A DNA stretch of 64,000 bases from Mobula hypostoma (taxonomy: Eukaryota). Positions 16,901 to 18,929 of the stretch are shown here, in pieces. Under the pieces are notes generated by a model. It saw only the letters and a list, made by a program, of their open reading frames with translations, did no database searches and had not been told where the DNA came from. The DNA is taken from the NCBI RefSeq assembly GCF_963921235.1, contig NC_086097.1, positions 145,764,001 to 145,828,000 on the forward strand, given 5' to 3'. Within the stretch, counting starts at the first letter, position 1; the number at the start of each line of letters is the position of its first letter. A program made the translations under genes and the position numbers.

Positions 16901-17251
16901 GGAATATTTTGTGTGTGTTGCTCGGACTCCCAGCAGCTGTAGATTTTCTCTGATTTCTAATTTGTATGTGTTGTTCAAAAAAAATATTTAAGACTTGCAT
17001 TCCTATAGCAGCTTCTACAACTTCACAGCTCAAAGTACTCGGCAAGCAATGAATGCAGTCTATATTATCATTTCCCCAAATGTTTGCAGGCCCAAATATC
17101 TAGCAGGAAACTCTGAACTTCATCTACCAGTGGGAATTGGAGCAGAGCTGGGCGAACCTCAAATTTGTTGATGCACAGCAACTGAAGGCCATTCAGCCCC
17201 TCAAACCCATTCTATCATCTGATTGTCCCGGTACAACATCCTTTAAATGGC

Positions 17252-17435
17252 AACACTCACAACACGCTGGGGGAACTCAGCAGGTCGGGCAGAATCCATG
17301 GAAAAAATCGGTCGATGTTTCAGGCCGGAATGTCGACCGATCTTTTCCATGGATGCTGCCTGACATGCTGAATTCCTCCAGCGTGTTGTGAGTGTTGCTT
17401 TGACCCCAGCATCTGCAGATTATTTTGTGTTTACG
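17252..17435. mobile_element. Short fold-back PLE-derived element
   Basis: Near-perfect inverted repeat centred at ~17323; 14-bp TSD ATCCTTTAAATGGC at 17238-17251 and 17436-17449. Confidence 0.8.
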
Positions 17436-18929
17436 ATCCTTTAAATGGCCTTCTCTGCTCACTTTGTTTTGTGGAACTATTGAATTTGCTCACATTTATT
17501 TAAGTTTGATTATTGACATTAGCACGTGACCCTTCTGCTAATTGTTAATTGTTCATGGCTGTTTGCATTATTGTCTTGTAAATTGTAGGTTACTATTGTG
17601 TTGTTTATTATGTTATTGTTCAGTGTTTTATGTTTGGCACCAAACCACAATCAGTTCTGGTATGGTTGACATACTGACAATAATGTGATTCTGATCCTGA
17701 TTAGATTTTGGTTGAAATGTGCCTCAGCTGTGTTTAACTGACTTTGTTTCATTTCTCTTGACACTCTTAACTTAAACAGTCAAACTCTTAAAACTTCTAC
17801 ATGAAACAGCATCTACCAACTTTTAGAGCATGAATTCCAGAATCTTGTTACTCTTTTCTGTGAAGAAATCCTTTCTCATTTCAGTTCTGGTTGGTGTATT
17901 GCCTGTTTAAAAATTATGTTCCTATTGTCCTTTAATTTAAATTCTGATTATAGATTTACTTTTACTACTCTGTTCTGTCTTTGTCATTACAAATACAGCA
18001 AAAAACTGCAGCAATCCCTTTGTTAATTCACTTTAGATAAATGCATAATTAAGTTTTGCATCCAAAATAAAAACATAGGGAGGCCATTACATATGTAATG
18101 TGATAGTCTGACATTCTTTGAAAACCAAACAAGTTTAAAATGAACAATTATCACTTACTTTACGTGCACTACTGTCTCACAATGTAGATAACACTGAAAC
18201 ATTCCAATCTGTAGTCATGTGGTGATTTCTGTTATAAGTCATTAGCAAGGCCATTTTTCCTATCATGTTTTCACAATTAGTCACATTAACCTGCTCTTCT
18301 ATCAAATCACCACACATTGCTCTCTACTGAGTATTTCTTTAATACCTTTTTGAAACATATTGTTCAATCTCCATTTCAGGTGATGCAATGCAAATTGTAC
18401 CATTCATGATGTAATATTTATCCCAATTCTTTTGCTACTCATCATAGTGTTTGTTTCTTCTTGGTACTGACTGCCACCAATGGAAACCGTTTTTCTTTAC
18501 TATTTTATCAAAAGCCTTGATGATTTTAAACACCTTCATCAAATCTCCCCTGAGCTTCTGCTCCAAGGTGAACAATGCAGAGCTAAGTCAATGCAGCATT
18601 GAGTTGGTAATCAGATCAGCCACAATCTTATTAGCCACCCCCTTAGGCAGTGTGTTGCAGATTCCAGCTGAGGCGGTCTTAATGGCTGTTTGACTATTCC
18701 CGTCTCTGATTCCTATATTTTGCATGCCTCTGACAATCTTGGCTTCTCAAATCTATTCATGTAATTCTAATTTCTCAATCATGGAACCTTTCTAGCTGAA
18801 TCCTACAGTAGTCTCTCCAAAACCCTCACATCTTTCATGTGTGCACTGTCCAGAACTGGATGCCGATAGTTCCAGTTGAATTTGCAATGTACAAATTAAG
18901 GGGATACTATGGATAGAGGCTAGCTAGCA

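Follow-up and report, generated by a model that had tools for sequence, protein, structure and literature searches.

Inversion and duplication can arise together when a retroelement primes at both ends of its target, as in L1 twin priming, where one RNA is represented by two adjacent arms that do not overlap. For Penelope-like elements (PLEs), an inverted 5′-truncated copy with a tail of 30–40 bp at one end is described as the typical structure (PMC8557442, PMC3846280), and how it is built remains debated (PMC8557442, PMC11167929). PAc, a Poseidon element of Anolis, cuts and extends both target strands in vitro, starts reverse transcription at two sites, one on either side of the tail, shows no strand difference in the use of these sites, and loses no insertion activity when the ribozyme is dead, so that cleavage is not required (PMC11167929). 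Hammerhead motifs of PLEs can also occur as opposite-strand pairs, which lie 100–700 bp apart in Schistosoma, and an intron of Drosophila Penelope ends at helix I (PMC4209133). Finally, non-LTR retrozymes, which are short, non-coding, hammerhead-bearing and derived from PLE terminal repeats, have been reported in one cartilaginous fish (bioRxiv 10.64898/2026.07.22.740005).

The window analysed here, i.e. the whole stretch of 64,000 nt from Mobula hypostoma (NC_086097.1, assembly GCF_963921235.1, positions 145,764,001–145,828,000, forward strand), contains five miniature fold-back elements ("minis") at the positions given by an earlier note on this DNA: E1 (6714–6905), E2 (17252–17435), E3 (25889–26096), E4 (51630–51793) and E5 (59075–59828, including a secondary insertion). 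They are 164–208 bp long and have five differing junctions. All are bounded by direct repeats: 14 bp with one mismatch at E1 (6700–6713 and 6906–6919, the right copy overlapping the left duplication of a long insertion, C), 14 bp at E2 (17238–17251 and 17436–17449), 15 bp at E3 (25874–25888 and 26097–26111), 15 bp at E4 (51615–51629 and 51794–51808), and at E5 either 11 exact bp (59064–59074 and 59829–59839) or 14 bp with one mismatch (59064–59077 and 59829–59842). The respective duplication scores are 12, 14, 15, 15 and 12; the identical search on 2000 random position pairs returned a score of at least 12 in 2/2000 cases and of at least 14 in 0/2000. The target-site duplications proposed in the earlier note are therefore real, but narrower in length than the variable 10–15 bp ascribed to them, at 14–15 bp in four, or all five, minis. 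They are richer in AT than the window (68% vs 59%), and no target motif was seen at their edges. Within 6700–6923, E1 and insertion C are two PLE insertions only ∼5 bp apart, in opposite orientations.

Contigs of four organisms were compared over positions 17000–26900, which cover two of the five minis (E2 and E3). In organism C (run X9), whose flanks differ by about 3–7%, one contig of 1054 nt joins 25873 to 26097 at E3; the 223 absent bases equal the 208-base element plus one 15-base duplication copy, and the 15-mer is present there once. In organism B (X5), contigs at both E3 and E2 continue from flank sequence into arm sequence, hence both sites are filled. An empty site was thus found for one of the two minis in the compared stretch, no informative piece being available at E2. 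The search for an empty orthologous site suggested in the earlier note has confirmed the duplication at E3, and its view of a target-primed insertion with inversion is supported. Summed contig depth reaches 1–4 million on the PLE terminus versus ∼20–25 on unique flanks (X1), a figure that is not a copy number and that we read only as extreme abundance of the terminus. A further high-depth repeat family, unrelated to the minis, occurs at 19000–19450 and 23160–23450 in all four runs.

The two arms of a mini are not equivalent. Numbering from the predicted hammerhead cut site, with the single-arm copy A as reference (cut after 21431), every mini has one arm reaching to about +100 to +105, with a tail of ∼37 nt, and an inverted arm reaching to about +66, at the 3′ base of a stem-loop that is predicted as a weak fold (z = −1.6). 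The tail corresponds to the 36–40 nt between the two arm ends and is present on one arm only. The description of these elements as two inverted copies of the PLE 3′ terminus thus holds for the inversion and the origin of the arms, and fails for the equality of their termini. E1 starts with the tailed arm on the minus strand (6714–6791, +102 to about −46, devoid of about −28 to +37) followed by the tail-less arm on the plus strand (6792–6905, −50 to +66), which bears a hammerhead motif with intact core letters at 6807–6842. E2 consists of an inverted tail-less arm (17252–17326, minus strand, about +66 to −12) and a tailed arm (17327–17435, plus strand, about −8 to +105, tail at 17398–17435) that meet at a palindromic junction in helix II; an alternative reading places the two 5′ ends at −16 and −4, respectively. 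The tail-less arm of E3 (25889–25979, minus strand, about +59 to −31) contains a hammerhead motif with a broken core (25944–25979), and the next template letters beyond its +59 end match 5/6 target letters; its tailed arm (25980–26096, plus strand) spans about −16 to +103, with the tail at about 26060–26096. E4 combines a short tail-less arm (51630–51658, minus strand, about +67 to +38) with a tailed arm (51659–51793, plus strand, about −33 to +101) whose hammerhead motif at 51660–51695 also has a broken core. In E5, the minus-strand tailed arm is split into an outer part (59075–59150, about +100 to +29) and an inner part (59717–59747, +14 to −17), and is followed by a plus-strand tail-less arm (59748–59828, about −14 to +66). 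The secondary insertion between the two parts (59151–59716, plus strand) is a LINE 3′ end, presumably CR1-like, which is 89% identical to 13047–13611 and replaces ∼14 nt of the arm.

Arm-to-arm mismatches in the five minis amount to 6/66, 9/76, 4/28, 2/38 and 2/22, and arm complementarity to 86–95% in E2–E5 and to 77% in E1 over the short stretch listed. The RNA of E2 (17252–17435) is predicted to form a single long hairpin (−119 kcal/mol, z = −15 vs 200 shuffles), in line with the earlier suggestion that transcribed copies would fold into hairpins. At least three subfamilies are represented among the mini arms, and an arm is usually nearest to its own partner. The combination of a tailed with a tail-less arm and a duplication scoring at least 10 is found in 6/6 two-armed insertions (E1–E5 and C), versus 0/4 duplications at that score among the single-arm copies A, B, D and F; four short fragments (11850, 16950, 49850 and 58394) were left out of this search.

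In the window there are also longer fragments whose 3′ end is matched by the arms; in insertion C this terminus is contiguous with a decayed GIY-YIG endonuclease (7340–7740, minus strand) preceded by a CX4CXXC linker. The PLE origin put forward in the earlier note is thereby supported. The hallmarks of an endonuclease-bearing PLE were found together here: a C-terminal GIY-YIG with a CCHH motif contiguous with the terminus, a minimal hammerhead motif, an inverted 5′-truncated copy with a 30–40-nt tail at one end, and a duplication at insertion. The endonuclease remnant gave seven matches, all from rays, the best being a Mobula protein (82% identity) with a reverse transcriptase motif, CX4CXXC and GIY-YIG; the decayed PLE frames of the window gave no Pfam match. 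A frame at 45731–46129, also without a Pfam match, presumably comes from a PLE reverse transcriptase, of which it would be the N-terminal part, as judged from its motifs. A CX2-5CxxC linker upstream of GIY-YIG is described as a mark of Neptune and Nematis that is absent from Penelope and Poseidon (PMC8557442). Because of the CX4CXXC linker in its endonuclease remnant, the source element is assigned on sequence grounds to the Neptune/Nematis type, the two being left undivided. Altogether, the minis are almost certainly independent, dead-on-arrival insertions of this endonuclease-bearing PLE, extremely 5′-truncated on both sides.

Insertion C (4.8 kb, 6923–11768) has the same plan at a larger scale, with an inverted tail-less arm of about 810 nt (6923–7734, minus strand, +65 to about −745) and a tailed arm of about 620 nt (7738–11768, plus strand, −514 to +103). 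Its duplication is 10 bp, exact (6914–6923 and 11771–11780), with a score of 10 that is reached in 6/2000 null pairs. A later LINE (about 8235–11660), which we take to be CR1-like, interrupts the tailed arm at the hammerhead and contains a 936-codon open frame with reverse transcriptase and endonuclease domains. As insertion C shares their plan, the minis stand at the short extreme of a continuum with it. The occurrence of the same plan with 500–800-bp arms in the window, which the earlier note had missed, makes them the published standard structure of PLE insertions rather than a class apart.

Several observations concern the other copies and the surroundings of these insertions. Both LINE insertions (8235–11660 and 59151–59716) lie inside PLE termini, one of them in the hammerhead core itself. 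Copy A (21326–21957, to about 21960, minus strand) is a tailed copy for which no duplication was found. Its 5′ end and those of copy D and of the tailed arm of C fall within ∼12 nt (−526, −523 and −514, at 21957, 20318 and 7738–7760, respectively), at an AT-rich motif that occurs about three times at the junction of C; this cluster may mark another hot spot of truncation or reflect a master of shorter length. The old copy D (19877–20906) resembles a non-overlapping inversion of the L1 twin-priming type, with an upstream ORF piece inverted beside a 3′ piece and an overlap of ∼12–15 nt; no duplication was found for it. At the 5′ junction of copy B (4451–4490), nearby element sequence recurs as two short inverted pieces. 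A tailed fragment at 11820–11933, which is short and ends at −30, is preceded by a decayed hammerhead remnant in the same orientation, possibly a partial tandem. Outside the PLE copies, CSRNP exons lie on the minus strand at 30479–39633 (Pfam CSRNP_N on exon 30482–31513; 39199–39633 assigned by eye), and decayed frames at 1880–3766 resemble, by eye, pieces of the reverse transcriptase and integrase of an LTR retrotransposon. A viral sequence scan for the element gave no match, and four loci from a metagenome scan were rejected as chance matches, their flanks being without element sequence in 4/4 cases.

The minimal type-I hammerhead motif, taken as a sequence motif only, occurs in ten copies in the window, five of them with intact core letters, while an Rfam scan at the gathering score returned no hammerhead match in the window. 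Its plan is that of the minimal type-I hammerheads of metazoan PLEs (PMC4209133), from which the minis depart in that the motif is broken or partial in most of them. The whole motif is retained in 3/5 minis, with intact core letters in one (E1); the inverted arm of E4 has no ribozyme sequence, and the tailed arm of E1 lacks ∼65 nt including the motif. Ten of the 19 arm ends fall between −52 and 0 (rate ratio of 7.0 vs elsewhere), as do 6/13 when one (tailed) arm per insertion is counted (ratio of 5.6, p = 0.004), for a zone that was chosen post hoc in both cases. This count omits the divergent termini 19748–19843, 33882–33965 and 58394–58520, which have no matching reference, does not see arms below 25 nt, and takes the long end of C as −770, although −745 is closer. 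Three arm ends lie at −30 to −33, and a pyrimidine tract ending in AG stands immediately 5′ of helix I in all seven copies that retain this part.

How could a tailed and a tail-less arm be joined so regularly? The explanation that we favour, and consider reasonably probable, is that staggered cuts free two target ends, that both prime on uncut RNA at different start sites, and that the two early-stopped products are joined head to head. The duplication of ∼14–15 bp of target implies staggered cuts on both strands. Each freed DNA end would then prime reverse transcription on uncut element RNA, as suggested by the biochemistry of PAc, with an outer start at about +102–105 giving the tail and an inner start at about +66, at the foot of the stem-loop. 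Both cDNAs often end within the hammerhead or immediately 5′ to it, where they may stall at the fold or run off at the 5′ end of the transcript or at a splice acceptor. The two cDNA ends would finally be joined by way of 1–4 self-complementary nt and then filled in, and longer cDNAs in the same process would yield insertion C. The minis would accordingly share with PAc two start sites past the hammerhead that bracket the tail and the use of uncut RNA, and the present terminus has, like PAc, an ATG ∼25 nt before the cut site (PMC11167929). The present element differs from PAc by its clade, as indicated by the linker, and by the absence of a clear ATT motif at duplication edges. Moreover, the PAc work does not predict the strict tail/no-tail pairing (PMC11167929). 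Six mixed pairs out of six would arise by chance at most once in 64; as PAc has no strand bias, independent priming needs an added rule, namely an ordered use of the sites, to account for them.

The same six two-armed insertions of one 64-kb window, which constitute the evidence on mechanism, have also to be confronted with a snap-back model, in which a single primed, tailed cDNA stalls near the hammerhead, primes on itself, copies itself, and is cut, or switches to the second target end, at the tail boundary (+66). This model yields the 6/6 tail/no-tail pairs directly. It also predicts the near-symmetric palindromic junctions seen in 3/5 minis (E1, E2 and E5), which speak against two-ended priming, as well as arms of one subfamily; earlier proposals include self-priming where the junction is palindromic, and resolution of the tail by the endonuclease (PMC3846280, PMC8557442). 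In a comparison of arms aimed at two different templates, the arms are mutual nearest neighbours in E2, E5 and, save for one 37-nt partial arm, in C; the tail-less arm of E3 is nearer to copy A (5/72) than to its own partner (9/70), a difference confounded by CpG decay; and for 11/49 differences between the arms of insertion C, each of the two letters also occurs in other copies. However, the arm reaching further 5′ is the tailed one in E4 (71 nt) but the tail-less one in E3 (15 nt) and C (∼230 nt), so that a single fold-back cDNA is insufficient without later deletions at the centre of the palindrome. In addition, both tail boundaries are start sites of reverse transcription in vitro (PMC11167929). 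We thus regard snap-back, the main rival, as rather unlikely, and retain priming from both target ends as the working model.

Less credit is given to a self-amplifying, non-autonomous family, in which transcribed fold-backs would be retrotransposed by the PLE enzyme. Strand-switch joints do recur in 4–12 contigs, that between 21462 and 25979 being present in 12 (X1) and 8 (X5) contigs, and a joint at −43 with a GAAG microhomology has a depth of 169 versus about 10–13 for single-copy sequence (X5). But the five junctions of the window are all different and at least three subfamilies are involved, and among the joints listed the largest depth is in the hundreds, far from the millions on the terminus, with the restriction that the letters between strand-switch joints are unread and that a junction identical to that of E2 or E3 would not appear as a joint. 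Such a family is improbable; the minis encode nothing and probably do not propagate themselves. It is very improbable that the template was a short ribozyme-cut RNA, linear or circularised as in retrozymes, as the earlier note had envisaged. Arm ends do cluster around the ribozyme and circular intermediates have been proposed for PLEs (PMC4209133), but none of the 10 mini arms, nor of the 19 arms overall, ends at +1, and 9/10 mini arms cross the cut site with contiguous upstream sequence, which disqualifies linear cut RNA and would not apply to a re-ligated circle. Head-to-tail tandem units of the terminus are also absent from the window, and ribozyme mutants leave PAc insertion unaffected (PMC11167929). 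Finally, a MITE of a DNA transposon can practically be dismissed, as the earlier note had anticipated in calling the elements independent products: despite their short, hairpin-forming, non-coding nature and fairly narrow duplication length, the minis differ in length, junction and subfamily, their ends are not mutual inverted repeats (the complement of one end lies 36–40 nt inside the other), and in longer copies the sequence of their arms continues into a PLE endonuclease ORF, this terminal asymmetry and PLE homology refuting the MITE reading.

The minis share with inverted pLTR-plus-tail insertions of PLEs the head-to-head truncated copy, the tail at one end and the palindromes at junctions (PMC3846280, PMC8557442), and differ from them by arms of only 30–150 nt without any ORF left, by their density (five in 64 kb) and by ends clustered at the hammerhead. 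The inverted PLE structures described in Adineta have duplications of 8–10 bp, and one non-inverted copy has none, in contrast to the longer duplications of the minis. Non-LTR retrozymes are tandem, head-to-tail units with complete ribozymes, and the minis, as single head-to-head insertions, are therefore not retrozymes. They also depart from L1 twin priming, since here the two arms are copies of one and the same stretch and have fixed starting points. A literature search that fell short of most subscription papers retrieved no paper whose subject is minimal fold-backs of this kind in cartilaginous fish.

To conclude, the minis are extreme truncation products of standard PLE insertion, whose structure is already published; their value is that of a testable data set and they represent no new kind of element. 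The remaining interest lies in the strict tail pairing, the 14–15-bp stagger and the arm ends clustered in or just upstream of the hammerhead. For repeat annotation, PLE hairpins of this sort can be mis-called as MITEs. Young, minimal, duplication-bounded copies, combined with empty sites in sister species, could separate two-ended priming from snap-back, and the same copies bear on whether the ribozyme cut is used at all. More speculatively, it is possible, if doubtful, that the minis form a mass fossil record of ordered two-ended integration by a dimeric enzyme, in which one target end is served by the outer and the other by the inner start site across that stagger, and that the uncut hammerhead region forms a "strong stop" at which both cDNAs end, owing to its fold, to a transcript start or to a splice acceptor at helix I. 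In such a scenario, perhaps tens of thousands of hairpin loci in ray genomes could feed small-RNA silencing of the element.
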